Positions 9,139-43,336 are shown, numbered from the stretch's first letter. The stretch is DNA of 58,098 bases from Bdellovibrionales bacterium (GCA_050633065.1 JBOEFV010000036.1:1-58098), one strand, 5' to 3'. Notes: a model not told the origin generated them from the letters alone. Made by a program: numbers and translations.

Positions 9139-10116
9139 CTATCGTAAAGTGACACTAGCCATATCAACGACAGCCCTAAGCTTCTTCTTTTCCTGAAAGA
9201 AAAAGTATTCAGGCTCTTCAGTTCCTGTAAATTTACTTTTAAAAAAATGTAGCCCCTTAGGCTTATAAAAGATTGGCATTTTATAAAACACTTTAAACAT
9301 CTTTGCTATAAACGTTTTTTCTTCAATGTTTGCAAAAGGGTTAAGCCCTAGGTTCAGCTCTTCTATTTCTAGCTCTTGAAAATATCTGATCAAAGATGAA
9401 ATTAAAAAAGACAGCGCATGCTTATCTTTTTGAGGGTTATATATAAGGTCATCCACGTAAAAGCACTTTTTGCCAAGCTTCCAGTATGGAAGAAGACTAC
9501 AAAAAGCTAGTATTTCCCCAGCCTTTTCCACAATAAATATTTTTTCATAACTGTTACTCACACTAGAACTTAACGGAGAAGATAATAAAAATTTTAATTT
9601 CACTGGGAGTTTTCTTTTTTTCCATTCCTTAAAAAGCTTTTGAAGATTTTCTTTTCTCTTCCCACCAATCTCTTCTAGAGCTGTTAATGTATAATTTTGT
9701 TCTAAACCCTTTTTTAAAGCTCTTCTGACCTCACGGGCTTCTGAGGTTTTCAAATCAAACTCCCTAAGTTTAATACTAGTACTGGTGCCAATACTGGATT
9801 TTAAAAAACCTTCTTCATTCCACTCATTACCAACATAGTAACCACAGATGTTTTTTTGCTTCTTCTTTGAGAATTGTTTAAACCCCTCATAAATCTTGTG
9901 TTTGGCAGGGCCTGACTCACCAATAGCCTCCCCAGCAATAATATGATGTTTTCCTCTTACTTCAAAAGCTAGTAAAGCATGATCATTAGCAAAAAATCTT
10001 TTGTTTGTTTTCCAGTGCGTAAGAAAGCACGGAGGAGTGTTTAAGAACTTTCTTTGTTCAAACCACGAAAAAGCATCTTCAGGGTTTAACTCAACTGATT
10101 CCAAAACTCTCTCCAA
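9139..10116 (-). CDS. DUF2156 / LPG-synthase C-terminal-like protein (MprF-type aminoacyl-tRNA-dependent transferase domain, stand-alone)
   Basis: 325 aa with no TM segments. The block order fits the MprF C-terminal domain: ALLAFEVRGKHHIIAGEAIGE, IKLREFDLKTSEAREVRRALKKG, ILAFCSLLPYW...YVDDLIYNP, LNLGLNPFANI, KGLHFFKSKF. Confidence 0.7.
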   Translation of the reverse strand: MERVLESVELNPEDAFSWFEQRKFLNTPPCFLTHWKTNKRFFANDHALLAFEVRGKHHIIAGEAIGESGPAKHKIYEGFKQFSKKKQKNICGYYVGNEWNEEGFLKSSIGTSTSIKLREFDLKTSEAREVRRALKKGLEQNYTLTALEEIGGKRKENLQKLFKEWKKRKLPVKLKFLLSSPLSSSVSNSYEKIFIVEKAGEILAFCSLLPYWKLGKKCFYVDDLIYNPQKDKHALSFLISSLIRYFQELEIEELNLGLNPFANIEEKTFIAKMFKVFYKMPIFYKPKGLHFFKSKFTGTEEPEYFFFQEKKKLRAVVDMASVTLR

Positions 10117-10873
10117 ATAACTTATGAACCTCTTTGTCTTGGTATTGGTCTACGCTCTTTAAAAGCTCTTCTTTTGTATACCCTGACAAGATTGATAATA
10201 CCCTGCTTATTTCAGCTGATTCATCGTATTCAAACTGTATACGCCAAGTTCTATAACTTAATTGATATAAAGCTTTATCAAGCTGTACCACTCTCTTCTT
10301 TTTACCGTTTAAAGGATCTCTTTTGAGTTGATCAATTACAAACCCCTTTAAAGAGCTCACACCTTTAGACTCAAGCCATGTTACCTTTTCTAAAGCTTCT
10401 TTTGAAAACTCCACAGCCTTCAAACTTTCTTCTTCAATCCATGATTCATTCACTACATCAAATTGATCGCACACTGGAACATACGGCTTAATATCAAGAA
10501 TTGGGGTTTCATCTAAAAGATCATGCCCTTTAACCACAAGGTAATCAGAACCTATCTCTACAAGCTCAACACAGCTCATTCCGATTGGATTTGGTCTATA
10601 CGGAGATCTTGTAGCAAAGACCCCTTGCTTCTCTGTGGCCCTTGGGGTTTGAGTCACAGGCTTCCAATTATCATTCTTATGAAACTTGTATATCAGCCAT
10701 ATGCGTTTAAACCCATCAAGCCCTTTTAACCCCTGTTCTAGATTAAACCCTTTCTTAAGCTGAACTTTTCCTAAAACAACTCCATCATCTTCAACAGACT
10801 GCCTTGGGGCATCGTACTTATTTACATGAGCTCCTTTAAAAAATCCAATAGGCCCAAAATTAAAACTATCCAT
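10091..10873 (-). CDS. trmO: tRNA (t6A37-N6)-methyltransferase TrmO (TsaA/YaeB family)
   Basis: MDSFNFGPIGFFKGAHVNKYDAPRQ aligns with the E. coli YaeB N-terminus. RSPYRPNPIGMS and DETPILDIKPYVP blocks are present. A GTG at 10897 would add 8 codons. Start chosen by homology of the N-terminus. Confidence 0.85.
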   Translation of the reverse strand: MDSFNFGPIGFFKGAHVNKYDAPRQSVEDDGVVLGKVQLKKGFNLEQGLKGLDGFKRIWLIYKFHKNDNWKPVTQTPRATEKQGVFATRSPYRPNPIGMSCVELVEIGSDYLVVKGHDLLDETPILDIKPYVPVCDQFDVVNESWIEEESLKAVEFSKEALEKVTWLESKGVSSLKGFVIDQLKRDPLNGKKKRVVQLDKALYQLSYRTWRIQFEYDESAEISRVLSILSGYTKEELLKSVDQYQDKEVHKLFGESFGIS

Positions 10874-11600
10874 TCTGCCGGATCCACTCATACCCACAGG
10901 CTGTTAAGGCTGCGTTTACATTTAAAGAGTTCTTCACACCAAAAACTGGAAGCTTCACAATACCATCACATAAAGATAAATCTTTTTTAGAAAGCCCAAA
11001 TCTTTCATTTCCGAAAATAAGTGCTGTTTGCATTTCAAAATCTACATCAAAAATATTCTCAGCCTCAACAACCGTTTCAACACAGATCATTTTATAATTT
11101 ATTGATGATAAATATTCCCTCACCTCACCAAGATCTCTTAACTTCTTAAGGCTCACTCCCGCCCAAGCGCCCATAGAAATTTTCTTTACACGCTCATCAC
11201 TGTAGTCTGGTGTATATCCTGTAGCTATAAGCTCTCTAACTCCTAAAGCATCACAAGTGCGCACTATAGCTCCCATATTAAAAGGGGACCTAATGTTATC
11301 TAGCACTATAATTAAATCTTTTGCTTCTAAAGGCTTATCAACATCTTCAGTTTCAACAAGAATCTCTGAGTCGGTAATTTTATTGTTTAGTTCTCTTTCT
11401 ATTGGGATAACAAAGCACAAAAACTGTGTTAGTCCCATTCCCTGCTTCACTCGTCCTGCAAGACCTTGTAATTTAGGGTTTTCACTCTCTAATAAGCCTT
11501 TACAAAATAAAAACCTGTCTTCTTCTAACAGGCCCTTCTCACCCAGTTTTGCCTCAATTGAGCGGGCTAGTTTATAAAGGTCTTTAAGGTTTTTTTCCAT
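10866..11600 (-). CDS. SpoU/TrmH-family RNA 2'-O-methyltransferase
   Basis: 244 aa. SPOUT motifs LDNIRSPFNMGAIVRTCDALGV, LIFGNERFGLS and LPVFGVKNSLNVNAA. Confidence 0.8.
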   Translation of the reverse strand: MEKNLKDLYKLARSIEAKLGEKGLLEEDRFLFCKGLLESENPKLQGLAGRVKQGMGLTQFLCFVIPIERELNNKITDSEILVETEDVDKPLEAKDLIIVLDNIRSPFNMGAIVRTCDALGVRELIATGYTPDYSDERVKKISMGAWAGVSLKKLRDLGEVREYLSSINYKMICVETVVEAENIFDVDFEMQTALIFGNERFGLSKKDLSLCDGIVKLPVFGVKNSLNVNAALTACGYEWIRQNG

Positions 11601-30191: not shown

Positions 30192-30401
30192 ATGAGCGAA
30201 TCTAATACTTTTGAATCTAATACTACTGCAGCTGAGGGATACGACCTAATTGGGAAAGTCGCTCTAGAAACTAAACTTCCTGAAGATGAAATGATTAGGT
30301 TTTTAGTGGATATAATCAAACTGGATAACATCGATCCCAAAACCCTTAGCTTAGAACAGCTAAGGGAAGTAATCCTAAATTATTTAAACAAACTTAATTA
30401 G
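30192..30401 (+). CDS. Small acidic hypothetical protein (69 aa)
   Basis: ORF only. Its 3' end overlaps the rplI 3' end by 8 nt (convergent). No motif recognised. Confidence 0.35.
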   Translation: MSESNTFESNTTAAEGYDLIGKVALETKLPEDEMIRFLVDIIKLDNIDPKTLSLEQLREVILNYLNKLN

Positions 30402-31355: not shown

Positions 31356-31460
31356 TTCGGTCTCCTTTTGGTCATTGGCCAGAACGCTTGTTCCAGCAAG
31401 AAGTTAATTAAGAGCCAAAAGAGTTAGCATATTGATATAGCCCAAACAAGGAAAACCTTC

Positions 31461-31495
31461 ATAAAAAGCAAATGTTTCAGTTCTTTATTTGAAAC
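31461..31495 (-). terminator. Rho-independent terminator after the pilin-like gene pair
   Basis: GTTTCA (31474-31479) pairs with TGAAAC (31490-31495). On the minus strand the hairpin is followed by AUUUGCUUUUUAU. It lies directly after the stop at 31496. Confidence 0.5.
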
Positions 31496-32437
31496 TTATG
31501 GAGCATTGTTTTTAACTGTGTGCTCGTCAGCACGCTCATTACACCAAATACATATGTATCTTGGTTTTTTGCCTGCTTTATACCCAACCAAGATTCTTTT
31601 GTACGGTGCTGAGCACTGGTTTTCGTTTGTTCCTGTAGGCTTTTTTTCTAAGCATCTGTTATGCGGCTCACAGCGGTTCTCAGGTGTTGAATTAAATGGG
31701 TTCCATATACGGCCCATTTCTTCACACCTAGCCGCCCCTGTGCTAGGCCCAAAGCAAGTTACGGCTTGGCCGTTAGATTTAAGCACCACATCTTTAGCAG
31801 CTCGCTGTACTGCCTGAAACCTTATCTCTAAAATAATATCTACCCCGTATGGGCTTAACTTGCCATCATCGGCTCTTCGCTCGTTAGTTACAAACTGTGA
31901 TTCTGCATTTGAACAACCTGGCTTTTCGCAGATCTTTGCATCAATAATTAAATAATATTTTCCTGCAAGACTTGTGGTATTTGATGTTGCAAACGTATGA
32001 GGGTCACCAACCCTCCAGCCACTAATATATTTTAACCTAATATCTGTTACTTCAATGTTGCCTTGTGCATTTTTCCAGCCTTTTGTAAGGTTGATTCCCA
32101 CCCCGTTATGGTCAAAACGCAAATTTTTAGGGGCCTTCGCCTTTTTGATTTGAGTCCCTGTCAATCTTGCAGGGAATGAGTTTCCTGACCCTCTAACAAT
32201 ACCTGTTCTTGGTTTATTACAAAAACCTTGGCCTTCAACAACCTGCTTTAAACTCTCTAAAATACTCCTGTATTCAAGTTTATGAGATGATTTTGCAGAG
32301 AACTTTTGGCTACTTAAAAGGTAGTTTTGCATGTTCACAATCATAAGAACAGACACTGCAGCCACAATCATCAATAAAATTAAGGCAGAGCCCTTTTGCT
32401 GCCGCCTTCTTTTTTCTTTATAAGCCAAGCTCATCAA
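31496..32437 (-). CDS. PilX-like / pseudopilin-like Cys-rich protein
   Basis: 313 aa. The N-terminus RQQKGSALILLMIVAAVSVLMIV resembles the PilX N-terminal helix. 10 Cys by my count, mostly in the C-terminal half. Confidence 0.5.
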   Translation of the reverse strand: MMSLAYKEKRRRQQKGSALILLMIVAAVSVLMIVNMQNYLLSSQKFSAKSSHKLEYRSILESLKQVVEGQGFCNKPRTGIVRGSGNSFPARLTGTQIKKAKAPKNLRFDHNGVGINLTKGWKNAQGNIEVTDIRLKYISGWRVGDPHTFATSNTTSLAGKYYLIIDAKICEKPGCSNAESQFVTNERRADDGKLSPYGVDIILEIRFQAVQRAAKDVVLKSNGQAVTCFGPSTGAARCEEMGRIWNPFNSTPENRCEPHNRCLEKKPTGTNENQCSAPYKRILVGYKAGKKPRYICIWCNERADEHTVKNNAP

Positions 32438-32442
32438 TAGAC

Positions 32443-33396
32443 CTAGTTACACTTCATACATGTGTAAAAATTCGCTGTTTGGTTATATGTGAATGTACAT
32501 TTTTTACCACATTCTAGTCCTGAGTATGCGTGCTTATCTACACCGGTATGAAATTTTGTCGAACCTGACGGACAACTTATATTTTTTGTAAAAAGATTCG
32601 TCACCCCTCCGTTAATAACCTTGGCAGGCTTGCTATTTTTAAACGTTGACCCTGCTGGGCTTAATGCTTTAATCGTTTTCCCACAATATACCCCATAAGT
32701 ATCATAGGCCAGCTGCGGAACCGACTTATCAGCAGTACACGTCCACTTAATATATGTTCCTTTGTTTTCACACATAGAGTCTGGCACACAGGCTTTTGTA
32801 CTGGCATTCCAAACCCCACTAATTGCCGTACAAGAGCTCTCCTCATCTGTTAAGTGGTTGCATGATTTGACTATTCCACCAATCGTTTTCACAGGAACCA
32901 TAAAGCGTCTTTCTGGAGAAGGCATCCAGGCTTTCCCTTTTGAGCCAGGGTCAAACCTACTTGTTTGTATAGCTACATCTACCATTTGCTCCAATGCAGC
33001 CGCACCTTCAAACATTGTTGCTACAGAATCAACTTTAGTATTGATAGTGGCTCTTATGCTATCAACGCGAACACTGTCAGATATCTTAGAACCATTTTTA
33101 ATTGTTCCTCCTCCGCCAACACCCTTAAAATTTGAAATAACGAGGTTTATACCTGATCCAATTTTTTTGTTAATTAAAGCGTCATCACAAAAGTCTTTAG
33201 TTCCTAAATACTTTGAGAGACTTGAAAGTGTATCATTCAGTTCAACTTTGTTTTCAATTTTCTTTTGTGAATTAGACATTTGTACAATGGCTGTACCCAC
33301 ACCTGCAGAAATTACACCCATAACAGAAATCGCAATAACGATCTCAATCAAAGACATTCCTCGACTATTTTTATACTCTCTTTTTGTATTTTTCAT
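32443..33396 (-). CDS. Large type IV pilin-like protein (prepilin-type N-terminal cleavage/methylation motif), Cys-rich
   Basis: 317 aa. Leader MKNTKREYKNSRG then MSLIEIVIAISVMGVISAG, with Glu at +5 after the predicted cleavage Gly. 12 Cys by my count. Confidence 0.7.
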   Translation of the reverse strand: MKNTKREYKNSRGMSLIEIVIAISVMGVISAGVGTAIVQMSNSQKKIENKVELNDTLSSLSKYLGTKDFCDDALINKKIGSGINLVISNFKGVGGGGTIKNGSKISDSVRVDSIRATINTKVDSVATMFEGAAALEQMVDVAIQTSRFDPGSKGKAWMPSPERRFMVPVKTIGGIVKSCNHLTDEESSCTAISGVWNASTKACVPDSMCENKGTYIKWTCTADKSVPQLAYDTYGVYCGKTIKALSPAGSTFKNSKPAKVINGGVTNLFTKNISCPSGSTKFHTGVDKHAYSGLECGKKCTFTYNQTANFYTCMKCN

Positions 33397-33455
33397 AATA
33401 TCAATTATAATTTAATTAAAAGGATTTTACTACAAATTAACACCCGGGAATCATT

Positions 33456-34184
33456 TTGAATCAAAAAACGCTCACTTATTCCATAACTATCGCAACACTT
33501 TTGTTGTTGCTCTTTGGCTATCTCAATTCGAAACAATCCTCTGACTTAACTACCGAAAACCCTGAACACCAGGATTCTAGCCAAGATGAAGTCTATGAGC
33601 CCCCCCAATTGATTGTAAACGAACGGCCCGCCCTTGCCCCAAGTGAACTTAAAACTACTCTTACTCCTGAAGAAGAGCTTGCATCTCTTGAAGAACTGCC
33701 TTTTCATAGTAGACAAAGGTCTAAAGAAAATATCAAAAAATTTTCTAAATTAGCATATCTAGACACTCCAAATTTAGAAGACTTTATGATGGAGGACTTC
33801 TCTCAAGATGAGGTGGCCGTTCTATCTGGTAAAAATGTTTCAGGAGAGGTTTTAACACTCTTGGCTTCCAAGCTCGAACTAAACCCTGAAAACTTAAATT
33901 TTTTACTTAAAAGCAATCCTGAACTTTTTCCTGCCCATAATCAAAATATTTTAGAAGGCGAATTCAAACCTGTACTTAATAACAAGGACCCTTTAAACGG
34001 AATGAAAGACATTACAGTTTTTACCAAAGAGGTTAATGGCTCTTTTTATGTCGCAGCCCATGCCCCGCGAGAAGACGGACAAGGAACTTACGGGTTTATA
34101 TTTGAAGGTGAAAAAAATAACATCGAGGCCAACTACGATTACTTAGAAAACTTTTTCTTGCAATTTAAAGCCCGCAAAGACTAA
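33456..34184 (+). CDS. N-terminally anchored or secreted hypothetical protein
   Basis: 242 aa. TTG start with no in-frame ATG before the hydrophobic segment ITIATLLLLLFGYL. First gene of a coupled operon. Confidence 0.45.
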   Translation: MNQKTLTYSITIATLLLLLFGYLNSKQSSDLTTENPEHQDSSQDEVYEPPQLIVNERPALAPSELKTTLTPEEELASLEELPFHSRQRSKENIKKFSKLAYLDTPNLEDFMMEDFSQDEVAVLSGKNVSGEVLTLLASKLELNPENLNFLLKSNPELFPAHNQNILEGEFKPVLNNKDPLNGMKDITVFTKEVNGSFYVAAHAPREDGQGTYGFIFEGEKNNIEANYDYLENFFLQFKARKD

Positions 34185-34834
34185 TGCTCAAGATCCTGCC
34201 TTTTACATTAGCCCTAATAAGTATTATATACGAGTTTGCTCTTGCACAGCTTATATCCACTTTTCATGGAAGTACTTTTACTGTTTATGCTATTTGTGTA
34301 GGGATCTTCACTTGTTCTCTCGGTTTTGGCTCACTTGCTTTTAATCATATCAAAAGTAAAGCTCCCTCCTCTCTACTACTCCTTGCCGAGACTCTCCTCT
34401 CTGTCTCTGCACTTCTTGCTCCGTTTATAATTGTTATTGGCACCGCTTTGCCCCTTCCACCATATCTCAAATACTTCTTTGTTTACTCAACAGTTTTTTT
34501 CACAGGTTTTCTCTCCGGCATAGAGTTGCCATGCCTTCTAGGACTAGATATAAAGAAAAAGGAAGCTATTCTTTTTTGGGATTACCTTGGAATGTTCATA
34601 GGCTCCTTACTCTTTGGCCTATACGCCCTTGAACTGTTTGGCCCAATAACTCTTTTATGGATACTTAGCTCCTTAAACTGTGTAGCCGCAATTTTCTTCT
34701 CCCATTCAAAGCATTGCCCAACAAAGTCTTTCTCCACACAAGCACTTCTCCTCTCTATCTTAATCTTAAATCAAGTATGTATCCTCAATGAATCAAAAAT
34801 CACTACTTGGTTTGGAGGGCTGTATGGTTTTTAG
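34184..34834 (+). CDS. Polytopic membrane protein paralogous to the membrane module of the next gene
   Basis: 216 aa with about 6 helices. It opens with SIIYEFALAQLIST, the same motif type as SLFYELIFAKTLT in the next ORF. Start shares TAATG with the upstream stop. Confidence 0.5.
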   Translation: MLKILPFTLALISIIYEFALAQLISTFHGSTFTVYAICVGIFTCSLGFGSLAFNHIKSKAPSSLLLLAETLLSVSALLAPFIIVIGTALPLPPYLKYFFVYSTVFFTGFLSGIELPCLLGLDIKKKEAILFWDYLGMFIGSLLFGLYALELFGPITLLWILSSLNCVAAIFFSHSKHCPTKSFSTQALLLSILILNQVCILNESKITTWFGGLYGF

Positions 34835-36371
34835 AGTTCTTGCACTATCCTTCATCTTAGCTTTTTGCAGTTTGTTCTATGAATTAATATTTGCAAAAAC
34901 CCTAACCCTTGCGACAAGTAATTTTATTTTGGCGCAAACTGCAGCGCTTGGCTTTTATTTCTTGGGCATTGGTGTTGGGTCATCTAAAAAAATCGACCCC
35001 TCAAAACCACTGTCCTTTTTACACACTGAGTATGTGCTCTCATTCTTGGGCTGCATCTCACCGGCATTAATTTACTTTATATATTTTATCTTTCACCTCT
35101 ACATGCCCAGTTCAACTCACATCATTATTTTACCAACTCTCCTCCTCATCCCATTTGTTGTTGGAATTTTTACCGGAAAAGAGTTCTTGCACCTGCTAAA
35201 CTTTGGTGAAAAACATGGTGTAAGCGCCAGCTTAGTTCTTGCCGCAACTTATTTTGGAAACCTTGTCGCAGGCTTTGCTTTTCCACTCTTTATCTACCAA
35301 AGTGCTGGAGTCGTCGGCTCTTCTTATTTTGCCGCAGCCCTCAATCTTATGGTCGCAATATTTCTCGCTATAGAAGTCAAAAAACATACTCAACTTTTTT
35401 TAGCAATTCCAATTACGCTTTGCTTTTTCTTCTGGGGCTCTAACGCAGCAAAGGTGCAAAACGGCATTTTAAACCTTAGTTATACTAAGGTTTACACTCC
35501 TGATTTTGGAACCTCGCACCTTAAAAACATCTACGTGTACGTAAAGTCTAAAATGCCCAGTGTTAGACAACACCGAACTAAATATCAAGACATTGACATC
35601 GTTCATAAAAGTAACGGTCACTACTCTTTATTTTTAAACAGAAAGCCTCAATTTAGCTCTGACAACTATAAAGGCTATCATGCGAGTCTGGCAGAGGGTT
35701 TCTTAAACTTACATCAAAACCCTTTAGGAAACACTTTAATTTTGGGCGGGGGTGACGGTATTCTTGCGCAGTACCTTATTGAACGCGGCGCTAAACGCAT
35801 CACTCTAATTGATCTAGATCCGGCTATAACCAACCTTGCAAGAACACACCCTCTTTTCAGGAGAATTAACAAAGATTCCTTCAACAATAAGATTGTCACC
35901 GTTATTAATGGTGATGCCTTCTCTTTTCTTCTAAAGACCTCTGAAAAATATGACTCTATCCTTATCGACTTTCCTCTTCCAACTTCTCTAGAGCTTTCAA
36001 AGTTGTATTCTCGAGAGTTTTACAGCCTTGTTAAAAGGAGCCTTAAGCCAAATGGCGGAGCTCTTTTTGACTCTCCCATAAATTTCAAGTTTGATTACGA
36101 CAAAACAAAATTTAAAAGCAAAAATCAAAAAATAATATCTGCAACACTGCACGCTGCTGGGATTAAAAATCACACAGGGTTTGGTCCACATGAAAATTTT
36201 GTCTACTTCAATAAAAAAGATGAAAAAAGGCACTTCCAGTACGATCTTTTGCCAGACAGTATTTCTGGAAGAGCGCTTGTTAACTTAATTGAAAATTCTA
36301 GCTTTTTAGAAGAGGCCCCTATAGAGAAAAAGTATATTAATTCAATATTCTCTCCAAAGAGGTTTCAATGA
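34824..36371 (+). CDS. Membrane-fused spermidine-synthase-like (aminopropyl/methyltransferase fold) protein
   Basis: About 7-8 helices, then a SpeE-like domain: TLILGGGDGILAQYLIERGAKRITLIDLDP, VINGDAFSFL, YDSILIDFPLP, LKPNGGALF. The ATG at 34824 is preceded by GGAGGG. The longest ORF starts at 34788. Confidence 0.7.
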   Translation: MVFRVLALSFILAFCSLFYELIFAKTLTLATSNFILAQTAALGFYFLGIGVGSSKKIDPSKPLSFLHTEYVLSFLGCISPALIYFIYFIFHLYMPSSTHIIILPTLLLIPFVVGIFTGKEFLHLLNFGEKHGVSASLVLAATYFGNLVAGFAFPLFIYQSAGVVGSSYFAAALNLMVAIFLAIEVKKHTQLFLAIPITLCFFFWGSNAAKVQNGILNLSYTKVYTPDFGTSHLKNIYVYVKSKMPSVRQHRTKYQDIDIVHKSNGHYSLFLNRKPQFSSDNYKGYHASLAEGFLNLHQNPLGNTLILGGGDGILAQYLIERGAKRITLIDLDPAITNLARTHPLFRRINKDSFNNKIVTVINGDAFSFLLKTSEKYDSILIDFPLPTSLELSKLYSREFYSLVKRSLKPNGGALFDSPINFKFDYDKTKFKSKNQKIISATLHAAGIKNHTGFGPHENFVYFNKKDEKRHFQYDLLPDSISGRALVNLIENSSFLEEAPIEKKYINSIFSPKRFQ

Positions 36372-37369
36372 AGCAAGATCGTTTGTGGCTTATTGATATT
36401 TATAGACTTCTTGCTTTAGTTCCAATCATAACCCTTCATATGTATGAAGTCCTCTTCTCCTCTAATCAAACATTAGCTAGCCACACAGGGCTTTTAAATT
36501 CTCTTTTTGAAGTTTTCGTTCGTTCTCTAGCTTTCTCTGGCTACATCATCGTCTTCATATTCTTTTTTTTACAAGGCTTTCAATCACGCCCCTTAAGCCT
36601 TAAAAAGCTACTGACTATTTTAGCAGGTCTTTTTACTCTTTCTTCTCTTATTGGACTAACCTGGTATGATCACTTTTTGATTGAGTGGGACATATATCAT
36701 TTCTTATTTCTCAGTTTTGCTCTACTTTATTTTTTAGGAAAACACTTAAAAGGCTCACTACTTGAACTCGCCGGGCTCTTCATTCTCTCCATTACTCCTT
36801 ATGAGTACATCTTCCCAATCTCCTCTGAGTCCTTACAAGTTATTTTTTATGGAAGCTGCTCTTTAAACGAAAGTATGTGGCCTATCTTCCCGTATATTTT
36901 CTTTGCTCTATTCGCTTTTAGCTTGGGCAAGTTTAGCAAAAGAGCTCCTACTCTATCTCTTTACAACACATACTTTTTACTGCTTTCAGGGCTACTCGCA
37001 ATCGCTTACACTTCCTTTGCCTATTTCTTTCATATAGCTCCCGGGCCTCAGTTTGGATGCTACACTCACAAGCTCCCCTCCTTCTACTGGATTATCTTTC
37101 TAACTGGACTCTCCTTAACTTTTTTGGCTTCTAGCTCATCCTCTCTAAGAGCATCTCCAAAGTGCCGCCTTATTAGTATTATTTCTTCTTTAAAATGGAA
37201 TACCCACTTTGGCCTATGCTATATTCTGCAGTGGTTTGTTCTCGCAACTATTTCTCTAAGCGAATCTCTCATTTTAGATGCTCCAACTTATTTTTATGTT
37301 TTCCCTATTATTGTTTTTCTCTGTGTTGAGTTTATAATGCAAGGAGTGAGTAAACTATGGCCTTCATAA
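36368..37369 (+). CDS. Polytopic membrane protein, possibly acyltransferase-3/DUF1624-like
   Basis: 333 aa with about 9-10 helices. The N-terminus DRLWLIDIYRLLALVPIITLHM resembles the R..D..R......H start of that superfamily. ATGA overlap with the upstream gene. Weak family call. Confidence 0.4.
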   Translation: MKQDRLWLIDIYRLLALVPIITLHMYEVLFSSNQTLASHTGLLNSLFEVFVRSLAFSGYIIVFIFFFLQGFQSRPLSLKKLLTILAGLFTLSSLIGLTWYDHFLIEWDIYHFLFLSFALLYFLGKHLKGSLLELAGLFILSITPYEYIFPISSESLQVIFYGSCSLNESMWPIFPYIFFALFAFSLGKFSKRAPTLSLYNTYFLLLSGLLAIAYTSFAYFFHIAPGPQFGCYTHKLPSFYWIIFLTGLSLTFLASSSSSLRASPKCRLISIISSLKWNTHFGLCYILQWFVLATISLSESLILDAPTYFYVFPIIVFLCVEFIMQGVSKLWPS

Positions 37370-38046
37370 AATTTATCTTTTTAACTGCATTTTCATGGGG
37401 CTTATCAGCTTTTAATTTCATCCCCCCAAATGATGCCTCTTTCAATACTGTTCTTTATCAAAAACAAATCGAGTGGGGTGTAAAAAAATATCTCCCCACC
37501 TTATCTAATAATTTGTCTTTTCAAGAGCACTTTAAAAAATTTATTACTGAAGAGAAAAACAACCTTTTCCTAACTTCTTCTAATCCAAGCGTTGTTATTC
37601 CAAAGTATTTTTTTAGATTCAAAGCCAAAGATAATTTACAGAGTAACTTTGAACTCGGCCTAATTACGTCGAGTGGAACTGGCAGTCTATGGAATGAGAA
37701 AGGGAGAGTAACTGAAATTTCTTTTTATACAAATCCAGTTCAGGCGCCAGAAACTTGCCCTTCTCATGCCTCAAAGAAATTTTTATATGCTGAATACAAT
37801 TCAAAAACATCTGTCTGCTCAAGTTTTTTTGTTGAAGATGTTGTTGGTCACCCTCTTTATTTATATAGCATCAAGGCAATACTTTCTGATGAAACAACTT
37901 ACTCTCTTCACTCCCCAAAAGTTTTCTACCCTGGAGTCATAACCGGCGGGAACACGTCAGTGTATACATCTTTAAGAAAGGCTTGGCGCCTGGTTTTTTC
38001 TAGAGTCCAAAATTTAGAGGATCATTCAATTGTCTATTTTCCATAA
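37357..38046 (+). CDS. Secreted hypothetical protein
   Basis: 229 aa. Signal-like FIFLTAFSWGLSAF. AAGGAG RBS. 13-nt overlap with the upstream gene. Confidence 0.45.
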   Translation: MAFIKFIFLTAFSWGLSAFNFIPPNDASFNTVLYQKQIEWGVKKYLPTLSNNLSFQEHFKKFITEEKNNLFLTSSNPSVVIPKYFFRFKAKDNLQSNFELGLITSSGTGSLWNEKGRVTEISFYTNPVQAPETCPSHASKKFLYAEYNSKTSVCSSFFVEDVVGHPLYLYSIKAILSDETTYSLHSPKVFYPGVITGGNTSVYTSLRKAWRLVFSRVQNLEDHSIVYFP

Positions 38047-38057
38047 GGAGCTTTACC

Positions 38058-38753
38058 ATGCTACAACTTATTGTTTTAAATGAGTCATTACAGGGGACAA
38101 CCAAAGGTCTTTTTGAAGGTTTTAAAATTGGCTCAACTGAAGACTCTGACTTGCAAATTGAGCAAAACTCTTTTGTGAATAATGATTTCATTGTTGAGTG
38201 TAATAGTTCTGGCGTATTCTCTTTATATTCTCTGAACAAAAAACCCCTTATTCTTTCCGGAGATCAAAATTTAGCCCGAATTGACCTTATACCAGGCCTT
38301 ATATTTTCAATTAATGAGGTCGGCTTTTCTATTCAAGAAGGAGAGGCACTTGCCTCTAGTGAAGAAGAGGCTACAAAGAAGGATTCCTTTCTTAGCCTTC
38401 TCAGCGAAGCTACTCAGCCCCCTAAGAGCTCAAGCTCTGCAGTTAGCCCACTAAAACAAAAGCTCTCTTTTAAGTTTGCAAGAGGCCTTTTGCTTAATAA
38501 AACGTGGGACATCCCATGGCACCCTATATCCTTTGGCTCAGAATCCAATTTTCTTTTTTTTGCTGATGACTCAATCCCCTCAAAACTTGATTTTTTAAAT
38601 ATTTCTGAAAAAGAGGGTGAAGTTTTTATCTCCTCAGAGATTCCTAATTTCGCCTCTCTTAACAGCTCAGTTTTAACCAGTGAGCCAAAATCTATCTCAG
38701 ATGGAGACTTGATTGAATTTGGACAAACAGCATTCTATATTGGGCTTAAATGA
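38058..38753 (+). CDS. Soluble hypothetical protein with degenerate FHA-like segments
   Basis: 231 aa. FKIGSTEDSDLQIEQNSFVNNDFIVE...LILSG and the C-terminal ISDGDLIEFGQTAFYI follow the FHA strand pattern but lack clear conserved Arg/Ser/His. AAGGAG RBS 8 nt upstream. Confidence 0.35.
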   Translation: MLQLIVLNESLQGTTKGLFEGFKIGSTEDSDLQIEQNSFVNNDFIVECNSSGVFSLYSLNKKPLILSGDQNLARIDLIPGLIFSINEVGFSIQEGEALASSEEEATKKDSFLSLLSEATQPPKSSSSAVSPLKQKLSFKFARGLLLNKTWDIPWHPISFGSESNFLFFADDSIPSKLDFLNISEKEGEVFISSEIPNFASLNSSVLTSEPKSISDGDLIEFGQTAFYIGLK

Positions 38754-39622
38754 CTATTCCTAAGCAAACTGGCCTTTTTAAAGCTTCTGATGAAACCAAG
38801 ATCTATTATGAGCTCTATGGTGAATCAGGGCCTGTAATCATTCTCTCTTACGGGATTGCTTGCCTTATGAATCACTGGCATCTCCAAGTTGAGGAGTTTG
38901 CAAAAGATCACCAGGTTCTAATGTATGACCTTAGAGGACACCACAAAAGTGAAATGGGTCCTGCTGACATTACTATTGAGCTTTTAGCAAAAGATACCGT
39001 TGAGCTACTAAGGTTTCTTTTTCCCAAAGACCCTAAAGCTCATTTTTGGGGACACAGCTTTGGAGCCCCCATTGCTTTTAGGTGCGCTTCTCTTTTTCCT
39101 GAAAATGTTGAATCTATTGTTCTTATTAATGGTTTTTATAAAAACCCATTCTCTCACATTCTCTCTGTAGAAGCCGGCTTAAAAATCATCGACAATCTAA
39201 CTGTTTTTGCTGAAAATGCCCCAGATCTGTCTAAATGGCTCTGGGCAAATTCCACAGATAATTTAATCTTTCATTATTTGGCTGGTGTTACAGGCGGCTT
39301 TAATCTAGAGCGCACAGCCTATAAAGATATTGAAATATACTCTAAAGGGCTTGCCGCCCTCTCTTTGCCAAACTTCTTTAATAACTTTAAGGCTCTTCTC
39401 CAATTTGATGGCTCTGGTTTTTTTGAGGACACTCTTTGCCCAGCACTAATTGTTCATGGTGAAAGAGATGGAATCGTCCCACTTGATCAAAATAAAATTC
39501 TTGCTGAGTGTCTTCCAAACGCAACTTTCCTTGAATTTGCTGAAGGAAGTCACTGCACGCAGTTAGATCTACCCATTGAACTCAACCAGGCGATCCGGAC
39601 TTTCTTAAAAAATAGGCTCTAA
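38750..39622 (+). CDS. Alpha/beta-fold hydrolase
   Basis: 290 aa. Nucleophile elbow WGHSFGAP. HGERDGIVP (acid) and EGSHCTQLD (His) blocks. ATGA overlap with the upstream gene. Confidence 0.75.
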   Translation: MTIPKQTGLFKASDETKIYYELYGESGPVIILSYGIACLMNHWHLQVEEFAKDHQVLMYDLRGHHKSEMGPADITIELLAKDTVELLRFLFPKDPKAHFWGHSFGAPIAFRCASLFPENVESIVLINGFYKNPFSHILSVEAGLKIIDNLTVFAENAPDLSKWLWANSTDNLIFHYLAGVTGGFNLERTAYKDIEIYSKGLAALSLPNFFNNFKALLQFDGSGFFEDTLCPALIVHGERDGIVPLDQNKILAECLPNATFLEFAEGSHCTQLDLPIELNQAIRTFLKNRL

Positions 39623-39647
39623 AAAGCCTAATTACTATTCTTTTTTA
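39613..39647 (+). terminator. Possible terminator of the seven-gene operon
   Basis: TAGGCT (39613-39618) pairs with AGCCTA (39625-39630) and encloses the stop codon. A T-run lies at 39641-39646, rather distant from the stem. Confidence 0.35.
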
Positions 39648-39737
39648 AGGTAATTTTATCTATATGTGGAAAACTTTGTGGATTTTAGGGAGTAATCCAC
39701 CATATATTGTTTAAGTGCTGCTAAAACTTCTAAATCT

Positions 39738-39776
39738 AGACCTATGGCTTAAAAGCCACAAGTCTAATCTTTTTTA
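39738..39776. terminator. Bidirectional hairpin terminator (sdhB on the minus strand, backup for the plus-strand operon)
   Basis: AGACCTATGGCTT (39738-39750) pairs with AAGCCACAAGTCT (39753-39765) with two wobble or mismatch positions. It is followed by TCTTTTTT on the plus strand and by a U-rich stretch on the minus strand. Confidence 0.45.
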
Positions 39777-42498: not shown

Positions 42499-43149
42499 TT
42501 AATGAATTAAGTAAATATAAAAAGGTGGAAGTAAGAACCCTACTGTCACTAAAGCTGCATAGGCCTTTCCTATACATTTAATCTTTGAATCATACTTTTC
42601 ACCGTTTAACCCTAAAGACTGAAAGCTTGAAGCAAGGCCATGACCTAAATGTGTCCCTAAAATCAAAAGAACTATTAAGTAAGCGCCTACATATAAAGGT
42701 TGAGCAAAAGACTCTTCCATTAATCTGAAAAGATCCCTCATTTCAACACCGTCATAGTTAGCTGGGTAATACGTTCCATACTTAAACGTAATCAAATGCC
42801 AAACTAAAAACGCTAAAATCACAATCCCTTGGAACTGCATAGTTCTAGAAGCAAAGCTTGCTTTATTCTTTGTTCCAGAAACTGCGTAAGTAGAACCCTT
42901 CGCTTTCTTGTTTTTAACTACTAAAATAAGCGCTATAACCAAGTGAGCCACGAACATGCCCATTAATACAGCTTCTGCAACGTATATTAGGGGGTTGCTG
43001 ATCAATGCATGAGCATATTTGTTGTAAGCCTCCGGGCCTACAAACATAAGCAGGTTTCCTGCCATATGTGTAAGCACAAATCCCGAAAGGCCTATACCTG
43101 CAAGACCGACCATCTGTTTTCTGCCAATAGTTGAACTAAAATAACTCAT
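42499..43149 (-). CDS. sdhC: Succinate dehydrogenase cytochrome b558-type membrane subunit
   Basis: 216 aa with five helices. His residues sit in helices (THMAGNL, FVAHLVI, LVWHLITF, GTHLGHGL), as expected for a dihaem single-subunit anchor. Position is upstream of sdhA. Confidence 0.75.
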   Translation of the reverse strand: MSYFSSTIGRKQMVGLAGIGLSGFVLTHMAGNLLMFVGPEAYNKYAHALISNPLIYVAEAVLMGMFVAHLVIALILVVKNKKAKGSTYAVSGTKNKASFASRTMQFQGIVILAFLVWHLITFKYGTYYPANYDGVEMRDLFRLMEESFAQPLYVGAYLIVLLILGTHLGHGLASSFQSLGLNGEKYDSKIKCIGKAYAALVTVGFLLPPFYIYLIH

Positions 43150-43336
43150 ACTGATTCCTCTAAAATATTAAGTTTTCTTTTAAGTCTTATATACCTTAAT
43201 GCGTTCGAATTGGCACCATACTAAGTGATTTGAAAACCATCATCATTATTAAACTCCAAGAACCAACCAAATGTCCTAACTTCTTGATATTTCCCGATTT
43301 AATGACTACAAAACAGAATTATAAAGGGGATAATTT

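Follow-up and report, generated by a model that had tools for sequence, protein, structure and literature searches.

A candidate pilin-associated gene cassette with a two-part membrane SpeE-like enzyme in a Bdellovibrionales bacterium

Gene content of the cluster

The DNA analyzed here is a stretch of 58,098 nucleotides from a Bdellovibrionales bacterium (GCA_050633065.1 JBOEFV010000036.1:1-58098; hereinafter, the window). It carries a cluster of nine genes located on both strands. Two minus-strand genes encode cysteine-rich pilin-like proteins (pilB-like and pilA-like), and seven plus-strand genes, designated g1 to g7, are divergent to them. Among the latter, g2 and g3 encode two membrane proteins, of which g3 carries a SpeE-like domain, and g4 encodes a relative of transmembrane acyltransferases. 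The seven plus-strand open reading frames (ORFs) and the six junctions between them had been described in the initial annotation, which was made from the sequence alone and placed a SpeE-like enzyme at the center of an envelope operon. When the window sequence was reread, all of these ORFs and junctions were present as described.

The protein encoded by g3 (ORF 34788/34824-36371, plus strand; 515 aa for 34824-36371) combines seven membrane helices with an aminopropyltransferase (SpeE) fold. According to the Pfam analysis, residues 296-423 of its 527-aa form match PF01564 (60.2 bits, cut-off 22.9, E 2.6e-16), and the motifs LILGGGDG, IDLDP, NGDAF, and IDFPLP are all present, in agreement with the SpeE-like domain that had been recognized initially. 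The best match was obtained with the NF002956 model of membrane-fused aminopropyltransferases (226.8 bits against a cut-off of 472; model positions 19-417 of 522). The score with TIGR00417, the SpeE equivalog, was 63.7 bits, which is below the cut-off of 249.55, and g3 falls well under the cut-offs of all aminopropyltransferase equivalog models. The AlphaFold2 model built from 108 homologues (predicted local distance difference test, pLDDT, 94.4; predicted template modelling score, pTM, 0.89) shows a helical membrane domain, with helices at residues 2-30, 34-54, 62-93, 96-130, 135-185, and 188-206, followed by the SpeE fold. A Foldseek search with this model returned only soluble aminopropyltransferases (1uir, 3anx, and 6bq2, with E-values down to 4e-12) and no match for the membrane part.

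The conservation of individual g3 residues was assessed in an alignment of 108 family members. The donor-side residues Q255, Q276, Y285, H286, D330, D332, D364, D382, and P384 are invariant or nearly so, and D311 of the GGGDG motif is Asp in 106 and Glu in 2 of the 108 sequences. In aminopropyltransferases, the acidic residue of the GxG(D/E)G motif excludes the carboxylate of S-adenosylmethionine (SAM), and ribose, adenine, and the aminopropyl group are bound by further acidic residues. Since this Asp is retained, the donor of g3 is probably decarboxylated SAM (dcSAM) rather than SAM, and the dcSAM donor site is, as judged from these residues, intact.

As for the acceptor side, g3 has N and Y at positions 281 and 282, where the family has D (76/108) and E (91/108), so that DE is changed to NY. 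Position 287 is A instead of the family E (97/108; YHE to YHA), position 385 is L instead of D (83/108; DLPDP to DFPLP), and position 416 is D instead of Q (76/108). The divergence of the substrate blocks, suspected in the initial annotation, was thereby not only confirmed but extended to four acidic or polar consensus positions. The changed positions presumably correspond to the amine-acceptor or diamine contacts in the structures of soluble SpeE. Because acidic and polar consensus residues are replaced by hydrophobic or aromatic ones, the acceptor is probably not a classical diamine.

The gene g2 (34184-34834, plus strand) encodes a 216-aa protein that represents a stand-alone copy of the g3-type membrane module. 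It matches positions 24-232 of NF002956 (E 1.9e-17), i.e., the membrane part of this model, which bears out the paralogy of the two membrane modules proposed earlier from their similar opening motifs. The polar residues common to g2 and g3 include Tyr-Glu in helix 1, Glu in helix 3, GxExP after helix 4, Asp/Thr-Tyr in helix 5, and Asn in helix 6. Two independent natural g2-g3 fusions were found, namely, P0008 (738 aa) and the ORF 9359-11590 of locus L019 (744 aa). Among 90 loci, separate g2 genes adjoin only those g3 proteins that lack the second Asp of the DxPDP motif. Because of the natural fusions, the shared polar residues, and the restriction of g2 to the Asp-lost g3 proteins, both proteins seemingly work together, and g2 is presumed to be the partner subunit of g3.

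Two unusual arrangements of these genes were also observed. In the Bdellovibrionales metagenome-assembled genome OZ250145, which has a chromosome of 1.33 Mb (L021, 6487-13344), one g2 is followed by four tandem g3 paralogues, while a g4-like gene and two pilA-like genes are located upstream; the enzyme is thus expanded here although the genome is very small. In a distant relative (L009, 9754-11476), MotA/ExbB and two ExbD genes come after g2-g3, and a sulfatase-family gene together with a weak prepilin-like gene comes before them.

The pilA-like gene (32443-33396, minus strand) encodes a 317-aa prepilin-type protein with a class III leader, G/MSLIE (the slash marks the cleavage site), in which G13 and E18, the Gly at -1 and the Glu at +5, are invariant. 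The protein exceeds the cut-offs of PF07963 (26.1 bits, cut-off 21.2) and TIGR02532 (21.4 bits, cut-off 16.3) and contains 12 invariant Cys residues and an invariant SCGKKC loop. This family is rare and comprises 9 clusters in 5.8 billion proteins. The pilB-like gene (31496-32437, minus strand) encodes a 313-aa, cysteine-rich, exported protein with seven invariant Cys residues and a C-terminal C.WCN motif. Its leader, KGS/ALILLM, contains no Glu5 and resembles those of GspK/PilX by eye only; no Pfam or NCBIfam model, including those of prepilin domains, matched the protein. The pilB-like orthologues adjoin the pilA-like gene in L001, L003, L004, L007, L008, L011, L019, and L091. Genes encoding a prepilin peptidase, an ATPase, a platform protein, or a secretin were not identified in the cluster or in its annotated flanks.

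The gene g4 (36368-37369, plus strand) encodes a polytopic protein of 333 aa. The protein itself is under every Pfam threshold and shows no match with PF07786 (cut-off 22 bits); one of six orthologues weakly matches HGSNAT_cat (E 0.0019). A profile search of 1.84 billion representatives revealed a compact family of 255 members, two of which, P0183 (29.6 bits) and P0209 (25.2 bits), exceed the PF07786 cut-off. The top Foldseek match of the g4 model (pLDDT 76) is the acyltransferase GWT1 (8xik; probability 0.98, TM-score 0.44, 337 columns), and every other match has a probability of 0.08 or less. Comparison of the g4 alignment with PDB sequences gave no match at the sequence level. Since P0183 and P0209 pass the PF07786 cut-off and the fold matches GWT1, g4 can be placed, by transitive homology, in the HGSNAT/acyltransferase-3 clan. 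Residues D10, H24, and E27 in the first helix and E321 near the C-terminus are invariant, H24 being found in 15 of 15 sequences. The polytopic fold and the invariant His in the first helix are shared with the HGSNAT/GWT1/OafA/OatA clan, whereas g4 has neither an SGNH domain nor any other domain for the acceptor side. HGSNAT-type enzymes, including GWT1, use cytoplasmic acyl-CoA to acylate an acceptor across the membrane, and members of the acyltransferase-3/HGSNAT/GWT1 clan act on glycans and glycolipids.

Some relatives of g4 contain additional domains. In P0209 and P0225, an HGSNAT-like membrane domain is combined with a C-terminal Peptidase_M28 (aminopeptidase) domain; these fusions may indicate that the g4 family acts on peptide amino groups. 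In P0228 and P0267, a g4-type domain is followed by an extra membrane anchor and a cysteine-rich domain. An assignment of these C-terminal extensions to the pilB-like family is not claimed: the hhalign program aligns the leaders with a probability of ~1%, and the resemblance is by eye only.

The other plus-strand genes differ in their distribution. The gene g1 (33456-34184) encodes a 242-aa, N-terminally anchored protein and is always located directly upstream of g2; its orthologues were found in L001, L003, L004, L006, L007, L008, L011, L019, and L091. The fast-evolving g5 (37357-38046) encodes a 229-aa protein with an apparent signal peptide. Its orthologues are recognisable in L001-L006 only, the order of g4 and g5 is reversed in L004-L006, and the g5 slot is occupied by unrelated-looking ORFs of ~200-270 aa in L008, L011, and L019. 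The genes g6 (38058-38753; soluble protein, 231 aa) and g7 (38750-39622; alpha/beta-fold hydrolase, 290 aa) are clade-specific add-ons found only in L001, L003, and L004, and g7 always follows g6. The FHA-like segments previously ascribed to g6 were not recovered, since the protein has no Pfam match at E ≤ 0.1 and a profile of four orthologues gave no meaningful match in the PDB; an NCBIfam match was not found either. The assignment of the last gene to alpha/beta hydrolases was upheld by the match of g7 with PF00561 (77 bits, cut-off 25.8) and by its GHSFG nucleophile elbow, and the protein is under the cut-off of every specific NCBIfam model. In L004, g6-g7 are placed after the pilB-like gene on the opposite strand; this arrangement is consistent with a single inversion that had a breakpoint precisely in the g5/g6 gap.

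The junctions between the plus-strand genes are TAATG at 34182-34186 (g1/g2), GGAGGG followed by the ATG at 34824 with an 11-nt overlap (g2/g3), ATGA at 36368-36371 (g3/g4), a 13-nt overlap at 37357-37369 (g4/g5), AAGGAG and an 11-nt gap before 38058 (g5/g6), and ATGA at 38750-38753 (g6/g7). Short stop/start overlaps are frequent in bacteria with compact genomes. Nearly identical junction geometry was found in L001 and L003 despite protein identities of 37-86%. The pilA-like gene and g1 are separated by a divergent intergenic region of 59 bp (33397-33455), where one promoter-like match was detected (33370-33399, plus strand), and the start context of g1 (TTG/ATG) is conserved. The most convincing candidate terminator after g7 is a hairpin followed by U6 at 39737-39775 on the plus strand (minimum free energy -11.3 kcal/mol, z -3.64, 0 of 200 shuffles equally stable), and the hairpin at 39613-39630 is weak (z -1.4). 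It had been suggested that terminators appear only after 39622; the best one indeed does, but an equally stable hairpin (35894-35916, plus strand; -9.9 kcal/mol, z -3.6), followed by a U-rich run, was observed inside g3, within the sequence encoding NGDAF. This internal hairpin could be an attenuator or a coincidence. The numbers of terminator-like and promoter-like matches in the region show no excess over the shuffled expectation. Beyond the cluster, a 69-aa ORF (30192-30401, plus strand) was found between dnaB and rplI, with an 8-nt overlap with the rplI stop; it is 97% identical in L001 and occupies the same place in L003, L004, and L006.

Conservation and divergence of the nine-gene block

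The six-frame ORFs of 90 loci were searched with hidden Markov models (HMMs) built from orthologues. A scan of genome contigs with the single g3 protein found nothing, and the alignment-based scan was successful. The pair of pilA-like and pilB-like genes accompanies g1-g2-g3-g4 in L001, L003, L004, L006, L007, L008, L011, and L019 and, partly, in L021. The pilin-like pair was found together with g1-g2-g3 in every relative having enough context, and g4 is present in most of them. Two new members of the pilA-like family were looked up, and both are located beside the cluster: in L091, g1-g2-g3 were recognized by HMM, and on the contig of P0141, the match of g1-g2-g3 is by gene size and orientation only. 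Three gene orders were seen among the loci where the core genes co-occur. In the window and in L001, L003, L004, L006, L008, L011, and L019 (with g2 and g3 fused in the last), the pilin genes are divergent, and in L007 all genes are on one strand, with the pilin genes between g3 and g4.

About 65 canonical membrane SpeE genes that retain the Asp occur alone in the genomes of Bacillus, Streptomyces, Sphingomonas, and others. An ORF with a prepilin motif was detected within 8 kb at 9 of the 17 loci without the second Asp of DxPDP versus 1 of the 70 loci retaining it (Fisher p 4e-7, the loci being not phylogenetically independent).

This comparison shows that synteny is kept in relatives, as the initial annotation had expected, rather than the genes being scattered. 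The idea of a seven-gene unit had to be modified: the g1-g2-g3 core is syntenic, but the two divergent pilin genes turned out to be its most faithful partners, and g6-g7 are confined to close relatives. Judging from gene content, the functional unit is a nine-gene cassette with a conserved core of the pilA-like gene, the pilB-like gene, g1, g2, g3, and usually g4. Synteny, the intact donor site, and the remodelled acceptor side support the earlier view of a dedicated envelope module, as opposed to ordinary polyamine synthesis.

All nine genes are located in a divergent allelic block with sharp edges (31450-39650, both strands). Compared with L001, the proteins encoded by the flanks are 90-100% identical (94-100% except for SdhC, 90%) versus 56-86% for the nine-gene block. 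The flanking DNA is ~83-97% identical (89-94% next to the block); identity is 57-76% across 31,500-38,700 (pilB to g6), 77-83% in g7, and ~92% in sdhB. Of the seven flanking genes, six show a synonymous divergence (dS) from L001 of 0.27-0.50, and SdhC shows 1.26; in the nine genes of the block, dS ranges from 1.4 to saturated. The ratio of nonsynonymous to synonymous divergence (dN/dS) is 0.05-0.16 in the six block genes with estimable dS, g1, g2, and g3 being saturated. Because the divergence is block-wide, the edges are sharp, and purifying selection is evident, the nine genes, including g6-g7, seemingly behave as one old functional allele exchanged as a unit. Allelic divergence of this kind is shown by surface-structure loci, such as pilin and O-antigen islands. 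A second, smaller dip in identity was observed at 42600-43200, in sdhC (42499-43149, minus strand; 83-85% DNA identity, dS 1.26).

Donor, acceptor, and membrane side

Genes encoding SAM decarboxylase (PF02675, E 1e-32 to 1e-38) are located between or beside g2 and g3 in L013, L014, L034, and L077, and a decarboxylase ORF was likewise found in L068 using an HMM built from the neighbouring genes. In the Bdellovibrionales cluster L011, a SAM-decarboxylase gene lies near the pilB-like gene, and P0018 is a fusion of decarboxylase, membrane, and SpeE parts. Given that GGGDG is kept and that related enzymes have SAM decarboxylase as a neighbour or a fusion partner, the "amine or alkyl transfer" proposed in the initial annotation can be narrowed to the probable transfer of an aminopropyl group from dcSAM.

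Outside the Bdellovibrionota, the gene order is g2, SAM decarboxylase, g3 (L014, 2719-9166; L034, 383-5112; L013, 8823-11875). L014 additionally contains a UbiA prenyltransferase gene beside the cluster and a second g3. In L034 and L077, there is an ORF of ~700 aa, the N-terminus of which resembles fused MFS/SpeE proteins by eye and has no Pfam match. In L077, which belongs to an unclassified bacterium, a 641-aa protein (489-2411) with a weak match to PilX_N (E 0.0057) is encoded directly upstream of g2; from this locus, the link with pilin-like proteins may extend past the Bdellovibrionota.

The nature of the donor bears on the idea that the SpeE-like domain is a SAM methyltransferase, comparable to NHMT or the C-terminal domain of METTL13, and methylates the pilins in place of prepilin peptidase. 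Prepilin-type proteins are normally N-methylated after cleavage. An enzyme of matching architecture is the fungal NHMT (AN4663), in which seven membrane helices are combined with a SpeE-like domain of seven beta-strands; its activity depends on the membrane part, and its targets are the N-termini of secreted proteins from which the signal peptide has been removed (PMC10349129). NHMT uses SAM, methylates, and has Ile in place of the acidic residue of GxG(D/E)G (PMC10349129). The helices-plus-SpeE architecture is the same in g3, and NHMT is its closest mechanistic precedent, the likeness being one of architecture. In contrast to NHMT, g3 keeps the Asp, as do 106 of the 108 family members, and is linked with the decarboxylase; dedicated SAM-decarboxylase genes or fusions accompany the related enzymes. 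Pilin methylation by g3 is thus very unlikely.

The reading preferred here is that the g2/g3 aminopropyltransferase and the g4 acyltransferase modify the co-inherited pilin-like proteins, and that the block is a pilin-associated cassette; it is put forward tentatively, as quite possible but still short of probable. The catalytic steps, the acceptor, the membrane side, and the order of action of g3 and g4 that we infer are as follows. Proteins g2 and g3 would form a heteromeric membrane enzyme in which two paralogous seven-helix modules are combined and only that of g3 bears the SpeE fold. This enzyme would take the aminopropyl group from dcSAM and place it on an amine other than a classical diamine, and g4 would use cytoplasmic acyl-CoA to acylate the acceptor across the membrane. 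Because of the pilin link, a protein is the leading candidate for the acceptor; the likely targets would be the pilin-like proteins, e.g., the invariant Lys-Lys (K298/K299) in the CGKKC loop of pilA-like, or a newly exposed N-terminus, so that a pilus or pseudopilus subunit with a chemical decoration would result.

Several points weigh against this reading. The evidence that points to a pilin-like protein as the possible acceptor is indirect. A SAM-decarboxylase ORF was not found in the 58-kb window with an HMM from the related loci, even at E ≤ 10. The g1 and g5 proteins have no match in Pfam, NCBIfam, or the PDB profile search, so no fold can be assigned to them. The g2-decarboxylase-g3 clusters of L013, L014, and L034 have no pilin-like neighbour, and such pilin-free clusters are found in Nitrospiraceae, Omnitrophota, and Anaerolineae. 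Because these clusters exist, the enzyme type is seemingly older than its association with pilins, and its chemistry is probably not intrinsically pilin-specific. In addition, a cytoplasmic N-terminus and seven helices predict a periplasmic location of the SpeE domain in the whole membrane-fused family.

The pilin-free clusters would also agree with g2/g3 aminopropylating a lipid head group (e.g., phosphatidylethanolamine) or a lipid-linked glycan and g4 acylating the same molecule, in which case the pilins would be co-workers and not substrates. Such an acceptor would be in line with the attachment of the catalytic domain to a conserved polytopic module that contains buried acidic residues, with the hydrophobic or aromatic nature of the changed acceptor-side residues, with the glycans and glycolipids used by the g4 clan, and with the UbiA prenyltransferase gene beside the g2-decarboxylase-g3 cluster of L014. 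However, no genes of lipid or glycan biosynthesis were found by Pfam and NCBIfam in the window cluster, and, at every locus with available context, the rare pilA-like family is tied to g1-g2-g3, which is hard to explain for bystanders. The fusion of two g4 relatives to the M28 aminopeptidase domain also points to peptide amines. A lipid or glycan acceptor is considered rather unlikely.

The linkage with SAM decarboxylase, adjacent or fused in relatives, is also characteristic of polyamine operons, and together with the fold and donor site of aminopropyltransferases it would suit a membrane synthase of an unusual free polyamine whose synthesis is coupled to export, the pilin neighbourhood reflecting co-regulation only. 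The conserved acidic residues of the membrane helices would fit a cationic cargo, and most of the wider family (83/108) keeps the consensus Asp/Glu and occurs alone in genomes. Yet the clade of the window has lost four acidic or polar residues (DE, the E of YHE, the second Asp, and Gln), and g3 scores far under the cut-off of every aminopropyltransferase equivalog. The enzyme also appears to need the dedicated partner g2, g1 and the pilin-like pair are always present, and the divergence of the block resembles that of surface-locus alleles. Free polyamine synthesis is distinctly improbable as the role of this cluster.

The diverged acceptor side, the constant presence of g2/g3 beside pilin-like genes, and the lack of ATPase, platform, and secretin genes in the cluster, which makes an unusual assembly factor imaginable, would allow g2 and g3 to be an inert scaffold of a pilus-like assembly platform, with a purely structural SpeE fold. 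Against this, the donor-binding residues and the catalytic Asp are all invariant across ~30% identity, and related enzymes are linked with SAM decarboxylase. The dN/dS of 0.05-0.16 also speaks against inert proteins, although it refers to the cluster genes with estimable dS, which exclude g2 and g3 because of saturation. An inert role is very improbable.

The preferred reading of pilin modification has to accommodate the predicted membrane topology. The mean number of Lys and Arg residues in the 108 family members is 2.0 at the N-terminus, 0.01 in loop 1-2, 2.6 in loop 2-3, 0.22 in loop 3-4, 2.6 in loop 4-5, 0.17 in loop 5-6, and 2.5 in loop 6-7. This clean alternation predicts a cytoplasmic N-terminus and seven helices, and a cytoplasmic N-terminus is likewise indicated by P0018, in which it carries the SAM-decarboxylase domain. 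Treating the g3 helix 135-185 as a single pass, which would leave the SpeE domain in the cytoplasm, was rejected: the pattern of Lys and Arg in the 108 sequences and the linker of P0008 require two passes. The predicted outward location of the catalytic domain raises the question of how dcSAM reaches the active site, since dcSAM is not known to be available outside the cytoplasm. Either the membrane module conducts the donor across the membrane, or helix 7 does not span it.

The first option leads to a periplasm-facing protein aminopropyltransferase: the paired acidic membrane modules would pass dcSAM, made at the cytoplasmic face, outward, the Lys residues or N-termini of the pilins would be modified, and g4 would N-acetylate the product, giving a polyamine-decorated pilus. 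By analogy with NHMT, which acts on secreted proteins, and with the g4 clan relatives HGSNAT and GWT1, which use a cytoplasmic donor for an acceptor across the membrane, an outward-acting arrangement of such an enzyme is conceivable. This more specific scheme is quite unlikely at present. If true, it would provide the first described case of enzymatic protein aminopropylation in a bacterium, as well as the first membrane aminopropyltransferase that conducts its donor, and it would suggest a function for the large membrane-fused SpeE family.

Relation to known systems and significance

The nearest relatives of g3 are the proteins of the NF002956/PRK03612 type, e.g., Rv2601 SpeE of Mycobacterium tuberculosis, which have the same architecture, polar residues of the membrane part, and dcSAM motifs. 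In contrast to them, g3 lacks four consensus positions, seemingly needs g2, and is linked with pilins, whereas ~65 canonical members occur alone. With soluble SpeE (TIGR00417; PDB 1uir, 3o4f, and 1inl), g3 shares the catalytic fold and the donor-site residues; it differs in being embedded in the membrane and in the loss of several family-consensus residues. Full-text literature searches found no functional or biochemical study of the membrane-fused SpeE family, and Rv2601 appeared in passing mentions only.

The closest genomic precedent, by analogy, would be pilin-modifying enzymes encoded beside pilin genes. TfpO/PilO, TfpW, and PptA are, similarly, polytopic inner-membrane enzymes beside the pilin that they decorate, and their loci vary between strains; however, they transfer glycans or phospho-forms, and their folds are unrelated. 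Full-text searches found no paper that links SpeE-like enzymes with pilins and no aminopropyl modification of pilins. The pairing of pilins with a two-part membrane SpeE-type enzyme is undescribed in the searchable literature.

Hundreds of membrane-fused SpeE-like proteins are annotated as "polyamine aminopropyltransferase". The cluster described here provides a defined and testable context for them, namely, an enzyme of two subunits in which the donor site is intact and the acceptor site is rebuilt, strict linkage with a rare pair of pilin-like proteins and, usually, with an HGSNAT-type acyltransferase, and cassette-like exchange. If the pilin-like proteins are indeed the acceptors, pilins would be modified in a way new to them, and SpeE enzymes would gain a further class of reaction.

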